7,405 nt of DNA from a virus (taxonomy: Duplodnaviria; Heunggongvirae; Uroviricota; Caudoviricetes), in the IMG/VR virus record IMGVR_UViG_2706794665_000010; one strand, 5' to 3'. The notes under the pieces are model-generated. The model saw only the letters and a program-made list of their open reading frames with translations, was not told the DNA's origin and searched no databases. The position numbers and the translations under genes are program-made. Below, piece after piece: positions 1 through 7,405 of the stretch (the first letter of the stretch is position 1; every line of letters starts with the position of its first letter).

Positions 1-2
1 GG

Positions 3-98
3 GGAATATCTCCCCGGCAGCCTTCAGGGAAAAATATCATCAGATGGCTGCTTAAAAAAAGAACAAATGGTAGTGTCCGCTATTGCCAGTACACCTCA
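3..98. repeat. Left copy of a perfect inverted repeat (partner at 7310-7405); covers the upstream region and first ~10 codons of ORF 67-297
   Basis: Reverse complement of 7310-7405 matches 3-98 base for base by manual comparison. Bases 1-2 (gg) would pair with sequence beyond 7405, so the repeat probably runs off-window. Confidence 0.85.
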
Positions 99-297
99 TC
101 CATCACCGAAAAAAATTGGCTTTTACACCATTGGCGATAAAAGCATTTACCTGTATGACCTACGCCGCATGGATGAAATCATGGAGGCTCTTGATAATCG
201 TTCGTCGATGGATTGGTGTGTTGCTGTTCATGATATGAATGCAGGGTTTGATGAAAAGATTTTGTTCCCCTCATCAGTTGAAAGCACTGCGGGTTAA
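67..297 (+). CDS. Hypothetical small protein (76 aa)
   Basis: Open frame ending in TAA at 295-297. No clear Shine-Dalgarno upstream (A-rich). Start and first codons lie inside the inverted repeat. Not recognised. Confidence 0.4.
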   Translation: MVVSAIASTPHPSPKKIGFYTIGDKSIYLYDLRRMDEIMEALDNRSSMDWCVAVHDMNAGFDEKILFPSSVESTAG

Positions 298-307
298 GGA
301 GTAACAC

Positions 308-475
308 ATGACCACTATTACCAAAGAACGTATTGAATTGTTCATTAAAAACCCGCTTGAAAACGGGCTTACCCGTGGTGAACAAATGGAACTGGCACGG
401 ATTGCGCTGGCATCGCTGGAAGCAGAGCCGGTTGTGTTCTGGTTTGAAAAATATCAAGAAGGGGCTACGGCATGA
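308..475 (+). CDS. Hypothetical small protein (55 aa), paralogous to the next ORF
   Basis: Strong SD AAGGAG at 296-301, 6 nt before ATG 308. Stop TGA 473-475 overlaps the next ATG (ATGA). Shares the N-terminus MTTITKERI and the motif [10 protein letters not shown] with ORF 472-816 ([19 protein letters not shown]). Confidence 0.55.
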
Positions 476-816
476 CGACTTTTACCAGAGAGCAGTTAAT
501 AGCTCACGCAGAGGAGACTATTGAAGCACAGAGACTGTGCATACCGGGCACAATCGACCATGACATCATCCGCACATATAAGATGGATATTGCTGTTCTG
601 GAAATCGCACTGGTATCGCTGGCAGCAGAGCCAGCCGGTAAATTGCATGAATACAAACCAGTGGGATATCAGCGTCTGGTCGATGAGTTAACCATGCTGG
701 TAAAGCAGTTAACCTGGCAACTGAGGAAAGCGAAGCCAGACTGCAAATTACCGGATAAGGCGATGAGTTATCTGGAGCGGAACGGACTGATAAGCGTGGA
801 GGATATTTTACGATGA
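472..816 (+). CDS. Hypothetical protein (114 aa), longer paralog of ORF 308-475
   Basis: ATGA start/stop overlap at both ends (472-475 and 813-816). GAAGGGG SD-like element upstream. Protein-like composition. Not recognised. Confidence 0.55.
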
Positions 817-896
817 CCTGGCCTGAAGCATTAACAACGGTAGGAATTGCGATGGCGGTGGCGCTGGTGGTGTATTCGATTTGCCGCTGGGGATAA
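813..896 (+). CDS. Small hydrophobic peptide (27 aa, [27 protein letters not shown]), predicted single transmembrane helix
   Basis: GGAGGA SD at 797-802, about 10 nt before ATG 813. ATG overlaps the stop of the upstream ORF. Too short for the supplied ORF track; translated by hand. Confidence 0.4.
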
Positions 897-1107
897 AAAC
901 GGTTTGCGGGAAAAGGAGAGTTAAGTAGAATTGCAGCGGGTGCTTGAGGCTATCTGTCTCAGGCATGAACACCAAAAGGCAGATAGAGAAAAGCCCCAGT
1001 TAACATTACGCGTCCGGCAAGACGCTTAACATTAATCTGAGGCTCAATCTATGAACGGCAAATCTAGGTTAGCCTCTTACGTGCCGAAAGGCAAGGAGAA
1101 GCAGGCT

Positions 1108-1263
1108 ATGAAGCAGCAAAAGGCGATGTTAATCGCCCTGATCGTCATCTGTTTAACCGTCATAGTGACGGCACTGGTAACGAGGAAAGACCTCTGCGAG
1201 GTACGAATTCGAACCGGCCAGACGGAGGTCGCTGTCTTCACAGCTTACGAACCTGAGGAGTAA
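1108..1263 (+). CDS. hokD: Hok/Gef-family type I toxin (51 aa), closest to HokD/RelF as recalled
   Basis: Translation MKQQKAMLIALIVICLTVIVTALVTRKDLCEVRIRTGQTEVAVFTAYEPEE has the Hok family signature (hydrophobic N-terminal helix, conserved Cys, TGQTEVAVF). SD AAGGAGAA at 1093-1100. The in-frame ATG at 1051 would give a 70-aa form but is not preferred. Confidence 0.9.
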   Translation: MKQQKAMLIALIVICLTVIVTALVTRKDLCEVRIRTGQTEVAVFTAYEPEE

Positions 1264-1332
1264 GAGACCAGGCGGGGGAGAAATCCCTCGCCACCTCTGA
1301 TGGGTCAGGCATCCTCAATGCACCCACACTTA

Positions 1333-1364
1333 ACCCGCTTCGGCGGGTTTTTGTTTTTATTTTC
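1333..1364 (+). terminator. Rho-independent terminator downstream of hok
   Basis: ACCCGC-TTCG-GCGGGT hairpin (6-bp stem, tetraloop) followed by TTTTTGTTTTTATTTT. Confidence 0.7.
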
Positions 1365-1371
1365 AACGCGT

Positions 1372-1401
1372 TTGAAGTTTTAGATGGTGCCGGAATAGAA
1401 T
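1372..1401 (+). promoter_or_regulatory. Candidate sigma70 promoter
   Basis: TTGAAG (1372-1377), 18-nt spacer, TAGAAT (1396-1401), about 80 nt upstream of ATG 1484. Consensus match by eye only. Confidence 0.25.
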
Positions 1402-1483
1402 CAAAAATACTTAAGTAGCGCGCAGGGAGAAGAGGGATGGACCCCGAACAGGGGAGTGCTATTTATCTGGAAGGATTCTGTTG

Positions 1484-1867
1484 ATGAAAATCGAAGAATT
1501 ACGTGAAATTTTTAGTGAAGATGGCCTCTATACTGTGCGCGTTGAGAATGGCGCTATTGTCAGCCACTGCCTTCCAGACTACACAATTCTGATANNNNNN
1601 NNNNNNNNNNNNNNNNNNNNNNNNNNNNNNNNNNNNNNNNNNNNNNNNNNNNNNNNNNNNNNNNNNNNNNNNNNNNNNNNNNNNNNNNNNNNNNNNNNNN
1701 NNNNNNNNNNNNNNNNNNNNNNNNNNNNNNNNNNNNNNNNNNNNNNNNNNNNNNNNNNNNNNNNNNNNNNNNNNNNNNNNNNNNNNNNNNNNNNNNNNNN
1801 NNNNNNNNNNNNNNNNNNNNNNNNNNNNNNNNNNNNNNNNNNNNNNNNNNNNNNNNNCAGGCCGTGA
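1484..1867 (+). CDS. Hypothetical protein (about 127 aa); roughly two thirds of it is masked
   Basis: SD GGAAGGA at 1470-1476 before ATG 1484. Visible N-terminus MKIEELREIFSEDGLYTVRVENGAIVSHCLPDYTILI. The frame reaches TGA at 1865-1867 only if the N-run 1595-1857 is open and length-preserving. Confidence 0.4.
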   Translation: MKIEELREIFSEDGLYTVRVENGAIVSHCLPDYTILIXXXXXXXXXXXXXXXXXXXXXXXXXXXXXXXXXXXXXXXXXXXXXXXXXXXXXXXXXXXXXXXXXXXXXXXXXXXXXXXXXXXXXXXXRP

Positions 1868-1871
1868 ATCA

Positions 1872-2052
1872 ATGTCAGCATTCCATAACGGCAGAATACT
1901 GGTGGAGCCGGAACCAAAAAGCATGCGTAATCTGCCGTCCGGGGTCGTTCCTGCCGCTCGCCAGCCGCTGGTGGAAGACAAAACATTGCTGCCGTTTTTC
2001 AGTAACGCACGGGTGATTCGTGCTGCTGGTGGTGCTGGTGCATTGTCTGACT
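1872..2052 (+). CDS. 5' portion of an ORF (MSAFHNGRILVEPEPKSMRNLPSGVVPAARQPLVEDKTLLPFF...) running into mask 2053-2304; possibly the N-terminal part of the downstream YbcO-like protein
   Basis: ATG 5 nt after the upstream stop; protein-like frame for 60 codons. The frame differs from the coding frame after the mask, so this is either a separate gene, a frameshift, or a mask-length artefact. Confidence 0.35.
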
Positions 2053-2304
2053 NNNNNNNNNNNNNNNNNNNNNNNNNNNNNNNNNNNNNNNNNNNNNNNN
2101 NNNNNNNNNNNNNNNNNNNNNNNNNNNNNNNNNNNNNNNNNNNNNNNNNNNNNNNNNNNNNNNNNNNNNNNNNNNNNNNNNNNNNNNNNNNNNNNNNNNN
2201 NNNNNNNNNNNNNNNNNNNNNNNNNNNNNNNNNNNNNNNNNNNNNNNNNNNNNNNNNNNNNNNNNNNNNNNNNNNNNNNNNNNNNNNNNNNNNNNNNNNN
2301 NNNN

Positions 2305-2866
2305 ATCCTGGTGGGCGGTCCGCAATCAGGTGGCGGACGCGCTACCGGAAGCGGTATTACGTCGTTCGCTGGGGTTGCGTGCGGAAAAAATTCGCTCTGT
2401 GTACAGTGAAAGCGACATCATACCGGGAGAGCAGACAGCCACCAGCATACTGAAGCAGCGCACAAAAAATATTGCGTTACTGCCTCACGTCCACCAGCAA
2501 CAGAACCCACCACAGGAAAAGACGGTGGTCAGCATTGCCGTTGATCCGGAGTCACCGGCTCAGTATCTCCAGCGCCAGAAATCACAACGGGAAGAGATGC
2601 CTGTATACACGCGCTGGGTAAAAACGCAGAAATGCATGACGTGTGGCAATCAGGCAGATGATCCGCATCACATCATTGGTCATGGACTGGGAGGGATGGG
2701 AACAAAGGCTGATGATTTGTTTGTTATTCCGTTATGCCGTAAATGCCGTAACGAACTACATGCCGGAGTAAAAGATTTTGAAGAGAAACACGGCAGTCAG
2801 CTGTTGTTGCTGATTCGTTTTTTAATGCACGCGAGAAATTCGGGTGTTCTGAAGTGGAAAGCATAA
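2305..2866 (+). CDS. C-terminal portion of a nin-region protein with a YbcO-like (DUF1364-type) zinc-binding putative nuclease domain; possibly DUF968/YdfU family. 5' end masked.
   Basis: Frame is open from the first unmasked base to TAA 2864-2866. Motif CMTCG...DPHHIIGHGLGGMGTKADDLFVIPLCRKCRNELH parallels the recalled YbcO pattern H-x-I...GxGTK..DL...CxxC. Stop abuts the rusA start. Confidence 0.75.
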
Positions 2867-3247
2867 ATGACCGAGCGCATAGAATTTGTTTTACCTTACC
2901 CGCCGACGGTGAACACTTACTGGCGTCGTCGTGGCAGCACATATTTTGTATCAAAAGCCGGGGAGCGTTATCGCCGGGCAGTGGCGCTTATTGTTCGCCA
3001 GCAGCGGCTGAAATTAAGCCTGTCCGGAAGGTTGGCAATAAAAATTATTGCAGAACCACCGGATAAGCGCCGCCGTGACCTGGACAATATTCTGAAAGCG
3101 CCGCTGGATGCGCTGACGCATGCGGGGTTGCTAATGGACGATGAGCAGTTTGATGAAATCAATATCGTTCGTGCTCAGCCAGTATCTGGTGGACGTCTGG
3201 GGGTGAAGATTTATCCCATAATGCTTGAAGGGCAGGTCAAAAAATGA
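2867..3247 (+). CDS. rusA: RusA-family Holliday junction resolvase (126 aa)
   Basis: Similar in length and motifs to recalled E. coli RusA (PxxRRRDLDN, LDDxQ, GGRL). Sits in the canonical position just upstream of Q. Stop overlaps the Q start (ATGA). Confidence 0.88.
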   Translation: MTERIEFVLPYPPTVNTYWRRRGSTYFVSKAGERYRRAVALIVRQQRLKLSLSGRLAIKIIAEPPDKRRRDLDNILKAPLDALTHAGLLMDDEQFDEINIVRAQPVSGGRLGVKIYPIMLEGQVKK

Positions 3248-4098
3248 AACTGGAAGATTTACCGAAATACTACTCCCCAAAATCCCCCGGCCTGACTGAT
3301 GCATCGGCCTCAACGTCGAAAGATGCGCTGAGTATCACTGATGTGATGGCCGCGCAGGGCATGACACAGAATCGGGCTGAGATGGGGGTTTCTGCGTTCC
3401 TTGGGAAAATGGGCATTAGTATGAATGACAGAGAGCGGGCAACAGAATTGCTGACAGAATATGCACTCAGTCGGTGTGATCGCGTGGCGGCGTTAAGAAA
3501 ACTCCCGGCAGAAATAAAACCGGCAGTGATGCGTATTATGGCTTCGTATGCGTTTGAAGATTATGCCCGTAGCGCGGCGAGCAAAAAACAGTGCCCTTGT
3601 TGCTATGGGGAAAAATTTATTGAAAGCGTAGTTTTTACAAACAAGGTCCAGTATCCGGATGGTAAGCCGCCGGTATGGGCAAAGTGTACGAAAGGTGTGT
3701 ATCCGTCTTACTGGGAAGAATGGAAAAAAGTCAGGGAGGTGGTAAAAGTTGCCTGTCCGGAGTGTGGCGGAAAGGGTGAGGTTTCCACCGCCTGTAAGGA
3801 TTGCCGTGGGCGTGGTGTCGCCATTCATCGTGAAGAGTCGGTAAAACGTGGTATGCCTGTTATCAGAGACTGCCAGCGTTGTGGTGGTCGTGGCTATGAA
3901 AGACTACCATCAACGGAGGCATTTAATGCTATATGCGAGGTGACAAACCAGATAACACGCGCGTCATGGGAAAAAACAGTTAAGAAATTCTATGATGCGC
4001 TGGTGACTCGGTTTGATATTGAAGAAGCATGGGCTGAGCGGCAGTTAAAAAAGGTAACTAGGTTGATTTTTCCGGAATCTGTGGTAAATTCGTCATAA
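3244..4098 (+). CDS. Lambdoid late-gene antiterminator Q (284 aa), zinc-finger type
   Basis: N-terminus MKLEDLPKYYSPKSPGL resembles recalled QuuD-type Q proteins. Cys clusters CPCC, CPECGGKG, CKDCRGRG and CQRCGGRG. Followed by a PR'-like promoter and short terminated leader. Confidence 0.88.
   Translation: MKLEDLPKYYSPKSPGLTDASASTSKDALSITDVMAAQGMTQNRAEMGVSAFLGKMGISMNDRERATELLTEYALSRCDRVAALRKLPAEIKPAVMRIMASYAFEDYARSAASKKQCPCCYGEKFIESVVFTNKVQYPDGKPPVWAKCTKGVYPSYWEEWKKVREVVKVACPECGGKGEVSTACKDCRGRGVAIHREESVKRGMPVIRDCQRCGGRGYERLPSTEAFNAICEVTNQITRASWEKTVKKFYDALVTRFDIEEAWAERQLKKVTRLIFPESVVNSS
4063..4090 (+). promoter_or_regulatory. PR'-like late promoter (copy 1) overlapping the 3' end of Q
   Basis: TTGATT (4063-4068), 16-nt spacer, extended -10 TGgTAAATT (4082-4090). 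The TAAATT -10 with upstream TG matches lambda PR' as recalled. Predicted start near 4097-4099. Confidence 0.5.
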
Positions 4099-4101
4099 CT
4101 A

Positions 4102-4163
4102 TGGGCGTTTTATGCCTGACGTTAGAAGAGTTTCTACAACCCGCCGCCGAGCGGGTTTTTTAT
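4102..4163 (+). repeat. 62-nt block (initial transcribed region plus tR') identical to 4950-5011
   Basis: Manual alignment: identical over 62 nt, while the adjacent Q 3' sequence is clearly diverged between the two copies. Confidence 0.85.
4139..4162 (+). terminator. tR'-like rho-independent terminator (copy 1), about 60 nt downstream of the predicted PR' start
   Basis: CCCGC-cgccga-GCGGG hairpin followed by TTTTTTA. Confidence 0.6.
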
Positions 4164-4200
4164 TGCGGAATTAATTACGGACCGTTATTATTCTGCTCCC

Positions 4201-4276
4201 GGCCCTTTAGCTCAGTGGTGAGAGCGAGCGACTCATAATCGCCAGGTCGCTGGTTCAAATCCAGCAAGGGCCACCA
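4201..4276 (+). tRNA. tRNA with CAU anticodon, most like tRNA-Ile2 (ileX/ileZ type); elongator Met not excluded
   Basis: Hand-folded cloverleaf: acceptor GGCCCTT/AAGGGCC, D-stem GCTC/GAGC, anticodon loop CTCATAA, T-arm GCTGG-TTCAAAT-CCAGC, encoded CCA. C4-G69 and C5-G68 are consistent with recalled tRNA-Ile2 determinants. Confidence 0.85.
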
Positions 4277-4572
4277 TCACAAACCGCCATTAGCTTATCA
4301 GGAAGAGCAGACGACACGATNNNNNNNNNNNNNNNNNNNNNNNNNNNNNNNNNNNNNNNNNNNNNNNNNNNNNNNNNNNNNNNNNNNNNNNNNNNNNNNN
4401 NNNNNNNNNNNNNNNNNNNNNNNNNNNNNNNNNNNNNNNNNNNNNNNNNNNNNNNNNNNNNNNNNNNNNNNNNNNNNNNNNNNNNNNNNNNNNNNNNNNN
4501 NNNNNNNNNNNNNNNNNNNNNNNNNNNNNNNNNNNNNNNNNNNNNNNNNNNNNNNNNNNNNNNNNNNNNNNT

Positions 4573-4647
4573 TACGATACGTTGGTGGTTCGGTTTGACA
4601 TTGAAGAGGCATGGGCGGAGCGGCAGTTAAAGAGGGTAACGCGATAG
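4573..4647 (+). pseudogene. 3' remnant of a second, diverged Q gene (visible part YDTLVVRFDIEEAWAERQLKRVTR*)
   Basis: Aligns to the Q C-terminus (YDALVTRFDIEEAWAERQLKKVTR) with substitutions, a roughly 10-nt insertion and an earlier in-frame TAG. At most about 300 nt lies between tRNA copy 1 and this point, so a full Q cannot fit. Confidence 0.6.
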
Positions 4648-4652
4648 TGTTG

Positions 4653-4680
4653 TTGATTTTTCCCGAATCTGTGGTAAATT
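4653..4680 (+). promoter_or_regulatory. PR'-like late promoter (copy 2)
   Basis: TTGATT (4653-4658), 16-nt spacer, TGgTAAATT (4672-4680); same elements as copy 1. Followed by mask 4685-4949 where copy 1 has only about 8 nt. Confidence 0.4.
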
Positions 4681-4949
4681 TGCTNNNNNNNNNNNNNNNN
4701 NNNNNNNNNNNNNNNNNNNNNNNNNNNNNNNNNNNNNNNNNNNNNNNNNNNNNNNNNNNNNNNNNNNNNNNNNNNNNNNNNNNNNNNNNNNNNNNNNNNN
4801 NNNNNNNNNNNNNNNNNNNNNNNNNNNNNNNNNNNNNNNNNNNNNNNNNNNNNNNNNNNNNNNNNNNNNNNNNNNNNNNNNNNNNNNNNNNNNNNNNNNN
4901 NNNNNNNNNNNNNNNNNNNNNNNNNNNNNNNNNNNNNNNNNNNNNNNNN

Positions 4950-5011
4950 TGGGCGTTTTATGCCTGACGTTAGAAGAGTTTCTACAACCCGCCGCCGAGC
5001 GGGTTTTTTAT
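4950..5011 (+). repeat. Second copy of the 62-nt initial-transcribed-region/tR' block, including the terminator hairpin at 4988-5009
   Basis: Identical to 4102-4163; hairpin CCCGC/GCGGG followed by a T-run. Confidence 0.85.
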
Positions 5012-5131
5012 GACTGAAATCGCGTCAGTACAGTAAACGCGCTGGTGGCGGTGAATACCTGTCTTTCAGCTTGCTGGCTTTTTCGACAAGAGTTATTGGT
5101 GTGTCACGTTAACCGGAAAAGGGAAAAAGAC

Positions 5132-5329
5132 ATGCTAAAACAGCAGGATATGACAGAAACCGCCAGAGTGGTGTTTAATGAATTAAGCGTTACCGAACCG
5201 GCGACAGTCGGGGAGATAGCGCAGAATACTTACCTTTCACGCGAACGCTGCCAGTTAATACTGACCCAGCTGGTTATGGCGGGTCTGGCAGACTATCAGT
5301 TCGGTTGTTACAGACGCCTTCCGCAGTGA
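5132..5329 (+). CDS. Small putative winged-helix DNA-binding protein (65 aa)
   Basis: GA-rich SD-like region (AAGGGAAAAAG) before ATG 5132. The segment TVGEIAQNTYLSRERCQLILTQLVMAGLA fits an Lrp/MarR-like helix-turn-helix pattern. Followed by an intrinsic terminator. The ATG at 5045 is not preferred. Confidence 0.5.
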   Translation: MLKQQDMTETARVVFNELSVTEPATVGEIAQNTYLSRERCQLILTQLVMAGLADYQFGCYRRLPQ

Positions 5330-5343
5330 AGGCTTTTTTATTT
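5316..5343 (+). terminator. Rho-independent terminator overlapping the stop of ORF 5132-5329
   Basis: GCCTTC-cgcagt-GAAGGC hairpin followed by TTTTTTATTT. Confidence 0.6.
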
Positions 5344-5356
5344 GTGGTAAATGGGC

Positions 5357-5387
5357 GGCTGGTGGGTGTTAGGGGCACCCACCAGCC
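5357..5387. other. Perfect 12-bp inverted repeat with a 7-nt spacer (GGCTGGTGGGTG-ttagggg-CACCCACCAGCC)
   Basis: Seen directly; all 12 pairs are Watson-Crick. No T-run follows on either strand, so it is not a canonical terminator. Confidence 0.6.
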
Positions 5388-5487
5388 ATCTGCTCATGCG
5401 TTGGGTTCACAAGCAAACCTCAGGCCCACTGCTTTGCGCAAAAGCAGAATGAGCCTATCAGAGACAGGCTTAATGATCCATGCTTAA

Positions 5488-5507
5488 TACTGTAAAAATA
5501 TCCAGTT
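5488..5507. promoter_or_regulatory. LexA (SOS) box-like palindrome TACTGTAAAAATATCCAGTT
   Basis: Fits the CTG-N10-CAG core and most of the recalled consensus TACTGTATATATATACAGTA. Lies 1 nt before mask 5509-5774, upstream of the visible methyltransferase body. Confidence 0.35.
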
Positions 5508-5774
5508 GNNNNNNNNNNNNNNNNNNNNNNNNNNNNNNNNNNNNNNNNNNNNNNNNNNNNNNNNNNNNNNNNNNNNNNNNNNNNNNNNNNNNNNNNNNNN
5601 NNNNNNNNNNNNNNNNNNNNNNNNNNNNNNNNNNNNNNNNNNNNNNNNNNNNNNNNNNNNNNNNNNNNNNNNNNNNNNNNNNNNNNNNNNNNNNNNNNNN
5701 NNNNNNNNNNNNNNNNNNNNNNNNNNNNNNNNNNNNNNNNNNNNNNNNNNNNNNNNNNNNNNNNNNNNNNNNNN

Positions 5775-6560
5775 ATGATGCGTGAACGCTTCAGTGTGCT
5801 GAACCATATTATCTGGGCGAAGCCGTCCGGACGCTGGAACGGATGCAACAAGGAAAGCCTGCGGGCGTATTTCCCCGCCACAGAGCGCATTCTGTTCGCG
5901 GAACATTATCAGGGGCCGTATCGTCCGAAAGATGCCGGGTATGCGGCGAAGGGCAGTGCACTGAAACAGCATGTGATGGCCCCGCTGATTTCTTACTTTC
6001 GTGATGCGCGAGCTGCCCTGGGGATAACGGCAAAACAGATTGCAGATGCCACAGGAAAGAAAAACATGGTGTCGCACTGGTTCAGTGCCGGTCAGTGGCA
6101 GTTGCCGAATGAAAGCGATTATCTGAAATTACAGGCGCTGTTTGCCCGGGTGGCAGAAGAGAAGCATCGGCGTGGTGAACTGGAAAAGCTCCACCACCAG
6201 CTGGTGGATACGTATACCTCACTGAACCGGCAGTATGCGGAGCTGCTGAGTGAATATAAACATCTGCGGCGGTATTTTGGCGTGACGGTGCAGGTGCCGT
6301 ATACCGATGTGTGGACGCATAAACCGGTGCAGTTCTATCCCGGGAAACATCCGTGCGAAAAACCGGCAGAAATGCTGCAGCAGATAATCAGCGCTAGCAG
6401 TCGTCCGGGTGACCTGATTGCAGATTTTTTCATGGGGTTGGGTTCGACAGTGAAAGCGGCACTGGCGCTCGGGCGTCGTGCAATTGGCGTTGAGCTGGAG
6501 ACTGAACGTTTTGAGCAGACGGTTCGGGAAGTACAGGATTTAGTCAGCCAGAACGGATGA
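5775..6560 (+). CDS. DNA methyltransferase, beta-class amino-MTase (N6-adenine or N4-cytosine), C-terminal about 260 aa; 5' end masked
   Basis: HPCEKP followed by DLIADFFMGLGSTVKAALALGRRAIGVE parallels the recalled YhdJ arrangement (HPTQKP ... DPFAGSGTT...IGIE). The expected N-terminal DPPY-type motif would fall in mask 5509-5774. Stop TGA 6558-6560. Confidence 0.8.
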   Translation: MMRERFSVLNHIIWAKPSGRWNGCNKESLRAYFPATERILFAEHYQGPYRPKDAGYAAKGSALKQHVMAPLISYFRDARAALGITAKQIADATGKKNMVSHWFSAGQWQLPNESDYLKLQALFARVAEEKHRRGELEKLHHQLVDTYTSLNRQYAELLSEYKHLRRYFGVTVQVPYTDVWTHKPVQFYPGKHPCEKPAEMLQQIISASSRPGDLIADFFMGLGSTVKAALALGRRAIGVELETERFEQTVREVQDLVSQNG

Positions 6561-6600
6561 TATTGAAGAATTAATTACGCGTCGTTATTATGCGGCTCCC

Positions 6601-6676
6601 GGCCCTTTAGCTCAGTGGTGAGAGCGAGCGACTCATAATCGCCAGGTCGCTGGTTCAAATCCAGCAAGGGCCACCA
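6601..6676 (+). tRNA. Second copy of the tRNA(CAU), 76/76 identical to 4201-4276
   Basis: Same cloverleaf. Flanks are similar but clearly diverged (upstream roughly 85% over about 35 nt, downstream diverging after about 30 nt). Confidence 0.85.
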
Positions 6677-7101
6677 TCACATACCGCCATTAGCTCATCA
6701 GGAAAGAGCGCCAGCCTNNNNNNNNNNNNNNNNNNNNNNNNNNNNNNNNNNNNNNNNNNNNNNNNNNNNNNNNNNNNNNNNNNNNNNNNNNNNNNNNNNN
6801 NNNNNNNNNNNNNNNNNNNNNNNNNNNNNNNNNNNNNNNNNNNNNNNNNNNNNNNNNNNNNNNNNNNNNNNNNNNNNNNNNNNNNNNNNNNNNNNNNNNN
6901 NNNNNNNNNNNNNNNNNNNNNNNNNNNNNNNNNNNNNNNNNNNNNNNNNNNNNNNNNNNNNNNNNNNNNNNNNNNNNGAATCCCCCTGTGCGGAGGGGCA
7001 ATCAGCGAGTAGGTATATGGGATAATCGCGGATTCAGGTGCTGGTACTGAATTCACCGGGAGGCACCCGGCATCATGCAATGGCACATAGCGCCACTCTC
7101 C

Positions 7102-7126
7102 AGCCCTCTCCGGAGGGGCTTTTCTG
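7102..7126 (+). terminator. Candidate rho-independent terminator
   Basis: AGCCCT-ctccgga-GGGGCT hairpin (includes one G-U pair) followed by TTTTCT. A weaker candidate than the others. Confidence 0.35.
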
Positions 7127-7309
7127 TGCCGGATACATCACAGTTTCTGGAACCTTAGGTACTACAGTATCAGTCAGGGTGCTATATTTTCAGATGTGAT
7201 GAAAGCCTGTCAGCAGGCAGGGCGTATCGGAAATGACCCAGTAGAGAAAACGTTGACTCAGATACCGGTGCTGAGTTACCGGGAAACCGGCATCACATGA
7301 CCGCTATCC

Positions 7310-7405
7310 TGAGGTGTACTGGCAATAGCGGACACTACCATTTGTTCTTTTTTTAAGCAGCCATCTGATGATATTTTTCCCTGAAGGCTGCCGGGGAGAT
7401 ATTCC
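7310..7405. repeat. Right copy of the perfect inverted repeat (partner 3-98); on the minus strand it encodes the same start MVVSAIASTP fused to a different 11-codon tail
   Basis: Manual reverse-complement comparison. Minus-strand translation from 7339 gives MVVSAIASTPQDSGHVMPVSR then stop. Confidence 0.85.

Follow-up and report, generated by a model that had tools for sequence, protein, structure and literature searches.

IS600, a 1264-bp element of the IS3 family, is one of five insertion sequences (IS) that have expanded in all Shigella. Shigella reference chromosomes carry 229–348 IS copies each, and these elements disrupt genes, cause rearrangements and are hard to place from short reads (PMC7373316). 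Here I report on a stretch of 7,405 nucleotides, IMG/VR virus record IMGVR_UViG_2706794665_000010 (hereafter referred to as the window), whose two ends form a perfect inverted repeat. These arms are the ends of two oppositely oriented IS600 copies, and not a new repeat. A preliminary description of the window had suggested that the arms belong to a larger inverted duplication; overall that reading is partly supported, since there is indeed such a duplication. The feature itself is genuine but ordinary, and belongs to biology that is already known.

The arms of the window are IS600 ends

Positions 3–98 and 7310–7405 are exact reverse complements of each other over 96 nt (100% complementary), as the preliminary description had stated and as a repeat finder and a direct string comparison both confirm. 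The arms are separated by 7211 nt, and their identity stops exactly at 98/99 and 7309/7310. On the outer side the match reaches past the right edge of the window, and bases 1–2 at the left end have no partner within it. A perfect inverted repeat of this length in 7.4 kb cannot be due to chance, being far beyond it.

A megablast search of 5,426 complete Escherichia coli genomes placed positions 1–98, at 100% identity, in 6104 places annotated as IS3-like element IS600 family transposase. All of these places bear the IS600 family transposase annotation, with up to 43 matches per genome, and 899 of the 6104 are plasmid-borne. Matches to uninterrupted phage DNA in E. coli genomes end exactly at 98/99 and 7310/7311; since the phage homology ends exactly at the repeat edges, the repeat stops where the insertion sequence does.

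As a reference I used a RefSeq-annotated IS600 copy of 1264 bp (L012, 1335–2598). The left arm (1–98, + strand) corresponds to the final 98 nt of one IS600 (nt 1167–1264), and the right arm (7310–7405, − strand) to the last 96 nt of a second, oppositely oriented copy (nt 1169–1264) with its terminus at 7310; both are 100% identical to the reference. Positions 2–55 encode the final 17 codons of the transposase orfB and its stop codon (TAA, 53–55), GNISPAAFREKYHQMAA*, identical to the annotated end of orfB. After this stop, the left arm contains the right terminal inverted repeat (IRR), which ends ...ACACCTCA at position 98, the canonical CA terminus of the IS3 family, while the right arm opens with TGAGGTG at 7310 on the + strand. 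The left inverted repeat (IRL) of IS600 reads TGAGGTAGCCTG... and the reverse complement of IRR reads TGAGGTGTACTG..., which gives the imperfect terminal inverted repeats with 5'-TG and CA-3' ends of IS600 and the IS3 family.

The other features of this family are likewise present. Both copies are 1264 bp long in related complete genomes and are nearly identical to IS600 (99.2–99.9%). They possess orfA and orfB with a programmed −1 frameshift, as annotated in RefSeq, and a DDE (rve) domain; the Pfam domains HTH_Tnp_1, HTH_21 and rve were found on the 385-amino-acid (aa) product of the flanking full-length copies. A 3-bp direct target-site duplication (TCC) is found for the right IS600.

The window is an entire draft scaffold

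The 284-aa Q antiterminator encoded in the window is present in one public record only, CWSW01000180.1 of assembly GCA_001252695.1. This record is 7405 bp long and is letter-for-letter the same as the window, its six runs of N included. The window is the entire scaffold of a short-read draft assembly. Four of the N runs were compared with complete genomes, to which their flanks are 100% identical: 1595–1857 (263 nt, for a real distance of 304 nt), 2053–2304 (252 nt, for 244 nt), 5509–5774 (266 nt, for 244 nt) and 6718–6977 (260 nt, for 245 nt). Because their lengths differ from the real distances, they are estimated scaffold gaps and not masked sequence of true length. The remaining runs, 4321–4571 and 4685–4949, are present in the deposited record. 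With the window being a whole scaffold, and the assembler having been blocked by a multi-copy repeat, the arms therefore touch its edges, and I infer that their length of ∼96–98 nt reflects the read or k-mer length.

I am highly confident that the window is the whole short-read scaffold of a piece of decayed lambdoid prophage that lies between two inverted, full-length IS600 copies, and that the scaffold ends inside IS600. Since IS600 is multi-copy in the genome, the assembler would have entered each copy for no more than about the length of a read or k-mer (98 and 96 nt), and extension stalled in both copies would leave identical inverted tips at the scaffold edges. The source organism is almost certainly Shigella sonnei, as judged from most aligned blocks of the window, which match complete S. 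sonnei chromosomes at 100% identity.

Several observations weigh against this account. The arms are unequal (98 and 96 nt), and a pure k−1 rule alone does not explain the 2-nt difference; this would need either a further IS600 copy whose first two flank bases are the same, which would fit k = 99, or extension of the ends after assembly. The organism of GCA_001252695.1 was deduced from the identity of aligned blocks, and not read directly. Finally, none of the complete S. sonnei genomes examined matches the interior of the scaffold, at about 3597–4949. This interior shows clustered single-nucleotide polymorphisms at 3597–3646 and an 8-nt indel at 4059, then an extra piece with a tRNA at 4164–4320. 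A second Q 3' end at 4572–4684 matches the Q of an E. coli prophage at 100% identity; a stretch of 62–69 nt that follows Q is repeated (4102–4170 matches 4950–5018). The 284-aa Q protein that results is the one confined to this record. Other prophages naturally have the order Q 3' end, post-Q stretch and tRNA-Ile, and two paralogous prophages were probably interleaved during scaffolding to give this interior.

The locus in complete genomes

Neither junction of the window was found in any of the complete E. coli genomes searched, and the left junction had no exact match in a scan of genome contigs of GTDB species representatives. The same locus is nonetheless carried by ten distinct neighbourhoods on chromosome records of 4.8–5.0 Mb. 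Two of these records, CP060117 (UKMCC1015) and CP022457 (2015C-3566), are named in papers as S. sonnei. The left IS600 is full-length in 10/10 neighbourhoods, and a full 1264-bp right copy is found in 8/10. In these eight, a full IS600 (8769–10032, + strand) is followed by the segment and then by another full IS600 (16398–17661 in L002, − strand), with the late-region genes for the SASA esterase and the holin beyond it. The right ends (IRR) of both copies face inward, and the paired copies differ by 0–3 nt in the five loci that are comparable base for base. The real inverted repeat is thus 1264 bp, its copies lying 6365 bp apart, with a 6.4-kb prophage remnant between them.

In this respect the larger inverted duplication foreseen in the preliminary description is borne out, each arm being part of a full IS600 in complete genomes. 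The repeat itself is the 3' end of an insertion sequence. The same genomes bear on the possibility, there given equal weight, that the repeat was created by an assembly foldback or chimera and is absent from the genome. The repeat does lie exactly at both ends of a scaffold that is broken by six N gaps and whose interior appears chimeric. However, both junctions, with identical flanks, are present in many independently assembled complete chromosomes, with full IS600 copies, and for the right junction there is both a proper duplication of the target and an empty site that matches it. As both junctions exist in complete chromosomes, a foldback artefact was rejected, and I regard it as extremely improbable.

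The abundance of short contigs agrees with a scaffold that stops inside IS600. The hybrid protein encoded at 67–297, which joins IS600 to the phage DNA (see below), is listed in 795 collection blocks, in 83 of which the longest carrying contig exceeds 1 Mb; in 325 it is 5–10 kb long, which fits a recurrent assembly break at IS600.

History of the two IS600 copies

The flanks of the right IS600 read ...gctaTCC|IS600|TCCttccagg in L002 and seven other neighbourhoods, the inner copy of the TCC duplication being at 7307–7309 (+ strand) of the window. L003 and L008 have the exact empty site, ...gctatccttccagg. The right copy arose recently by a simple insertion of the IS3 type, which duplicated 3 bp; it is polymorphic among strains and could be used as a minor lineage marker.

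L003 and L008 also possess an additional ∼250 bp (11505–11760, compared with a position of about 11528 in L002) containing an open reading frame (ORF) of the Rem family (PF27490), between hok and the DUF968 gene. This coincides with the missing right IS600 and looks like a linked lineage difference. The N gap at 1595–1857 of the window covers the corresponding place.

The left IS600 has a different history. The first 3 bp of phage DNA beside it are again TCC (99–101, + strand), with no matching TCC in the outer flank, which reads ...ctttaatttt|IS600 in complete genomes; no target duplication was found. In an E. coli prophage (L001), the uninterrupted left target reads ...gatcgctg|tccatcacc. 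The outer flank of the left IS600 (L002, 8379–8768) is an oppositely oriented DUF977 gene, and not the 5' part that the interrupted phage gene lacks. With no duplication and with this gene as its outer flank, the left junction therefore derives from a later recombination with another IS600 copy. In L010, the outer-left flank (8170–8768) is wholly different from that of the other complete genomes, which shows that IS600-mediated rearrangement is ongoing. This flank and the left junction both point to rearrangements of prophage and chromosome by IS600 among S. sonnei strains. The left IS600 is the older copy, its outer junction having been remodelled by recombination with another IS600, and the right one is a recent, simple transposition with its TCC duplication.

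The TCC beside both IS ends was also considered as the trace of a single event. Relative to the IS, the two flanks are TCC and GGA, and a true duplication is found only at the right copy; this is probably a coincidence.

Is the segment invertible or mobile?

The inverted repeats at both ends could also be those of a site-specific invertible element (of the Hin, Gin, Cin or Pin type), or of a composite transposon moving the prophage segment as one piece. For a composite transposon, a single duplication would surround the whole unit. Instead, the filled and empty alleles differ by exactly one IS600 and 3 bp, and not by a composite unit, the empty-site alleles lacking the right IS600 only. The outer ends of such a transposon would both be IRL, and the outer flanks (ttt... 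and tcc...) share no duplication. Elements of the Hin type have an invertase within or adjacent to the invertible segment, with crossover sites, and are found in both orientations in populations or strains. Here the arms are IS termini and not short crossover sites, and a single orientation was found in about 25 long contigs. The preliminary description had raised site-specific inversion of the segment and proposed a search for a recombinase nearby. There is none within 99–7309 or next to the segment. In complete genomes, a large serine recombinase gene does lie upstream of the left IS600, ∼6.2 kb from that copy and 7.5 kb from the segment, but it encodes a 506-aa prophage-type enzyme, and host genes (4HBT, ispA, ompW) separate it from the segment. 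On the basis of the target duplication, the empty site and the lack of a recombinase, both site-specific inversion and a composite transposon were rejected, and such an element is hardly credible at this locus.

A different possibility is that RecA-dependent homologous recombination between the two copies, each of 1264 bp, flips the segment. Being inverted, 6.4 kb apart and only 0–3 nt different, the copies are a substrate for such an inversion; IS-flanked inversions are documented in S. sonnei (PMC12795559), and L010 indicates that, in at least one strain, recombination has taken place between the left IS600 and another copy. A flip would uncouple the Q antiterminator, the methylase and the tRNA from the downstream late and lysis genes. 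Against this, the orientation is the same in all eight distinct neighbourhoods from complete genomes that carry both copies, the TCC duplication of the right IS600 is intact, and both the empty-site alleles and uninterrupted E. coli prophages have the segment in collinear order. Among the long contigs read, about 25 and not an exhaustive set, none carried an inverted allele. The short-read scaffold is itself uninformative on orientation, as both junction sequences are identical in either state. Flipping of the segment by this route appears very unlikely. That the inverted pair acts as a low-frequency homologous-recombination switch in S. sonnei, making the Q, methylase and tRNA module phase-variable relative to the late and lysis genes, is a still more doubtful proposition, and nothing indicates a dedicated inversion switch.

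The gene start within the repeat

According to the preliminary description, the repeat covers the first 10 codons of an ORF at 67–297, and the right end carries the same start with a different short tail on the minus strand. Both points are correct: 32 nt of the ORF (10 codons and 2 nt) are repeated, and an ATG at 7341 opens a 21-codon ORF (7276–7341, − strand), MVVSAIASTPQDSGHVMPVSR*. The latter has an IS600-derived start, then reads into the right flank, and is a chance ORF.

The ORF at 67–297 (+ strand, 76 aa) is a hybrid. Codons 1–11 derive from the right end of IS600, 3' of the transposase stop, and the rest is a truncated phage gene: residues 12–76 correspond to residues 23–87 of an 87-aa hypothetical protein of lambdoid phages (65/65 identity; L001, 2936–3199). 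This phage homology begins exactly at 99, the 5' end of the phage gene having been removed by the IS600 junction. A scan of positions 1–98 found no sigma-70-like promoter on the + strand to drive the hybrid ORF. What looks like a gene start within the repeat is an ATG that the end of IS600 contains by chance, in frame with a 5'-truncated phage gene, and the repeat is not a regulatory or invertible module containing a gene start.

Content of the prophage segment

Between the two arms, positions 99–7309 (+ strand) correspond to a defective lambdoid prophage segment, interrupted by the six N gaps. It includes a hok/sok type I toxin-antitoxin system (938–1263), with an Rfam sok match at 938–1113 (112 bits) and an ORF of the Hok/Gef family at 1051–1263, annotated as hokD in a related E. 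coli prophage. This is followed by a DUF968/HNH gene (about 1858–2866), RusA (2867–3247), the Q antiterminator (3244–4098), an ORF of 65 aa (5132–5329) and an N6/N4 DNA methylase ending at 6560. Three small ORFs are also found within the segment.

ARAGORN predicts tRNA-Met (CAT) genes at 4201–4276 and 6601–6676. The homologue in RefSeq E. coli prophages is annotated as tRNA-Ile, of the lysidine-modified ileX/ileZ type that is typical of lambdoid late regions. The tRNA at 4201–4276 falls in the part of the scaffold suspected to be chimeric. An Rfam match to the STnc100 small RNA (6949–7131; 69.8 bits, for a gathering score of 47) starts in an N gap and reaches the region upstream of the right IS600.

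Comparison with known systems

The arms of the window share with IS600 the TG...CA termini, the C-terminus of orfB and the 3-bp target duplication, and no difference was found between them, save that the window holds just the last 96–98 nt of each copy, because the scaffold stops there. The locus is a further example of IS600 expansion and prophage decay in S. sonnei, both already well described.

With the IS-mediated inversions of Shigella it has in common two near-identical, inverted IS copies, a known substrate. It differs from those documented in S. sonnei, which span 20–130 kb (PMC12795559), in that the segment is 6.4 kb long and has no observed inverted allele.

It also resembles the IS-bounded contig ends of short-read Shigella assemblies: at either edge, the scaffold enters a multi-copy repeat and stops after about the length of a read or k-mer. 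The finding is mainly of use as a caution: draft contigs that hold a unique segment between inverted copies of a multi-copy IS are expected to end in perfect inverted repeats, and ORFs that start inside such IS-derived contig ends are fusion artefacts. What sets this scaffold apart from other IS-bounded contigs is that its two edges lie in oppositely oriented copies of one IS, both at the same IS end, and this yields a perfect terminal inverted repeat that mimics a biological feature.

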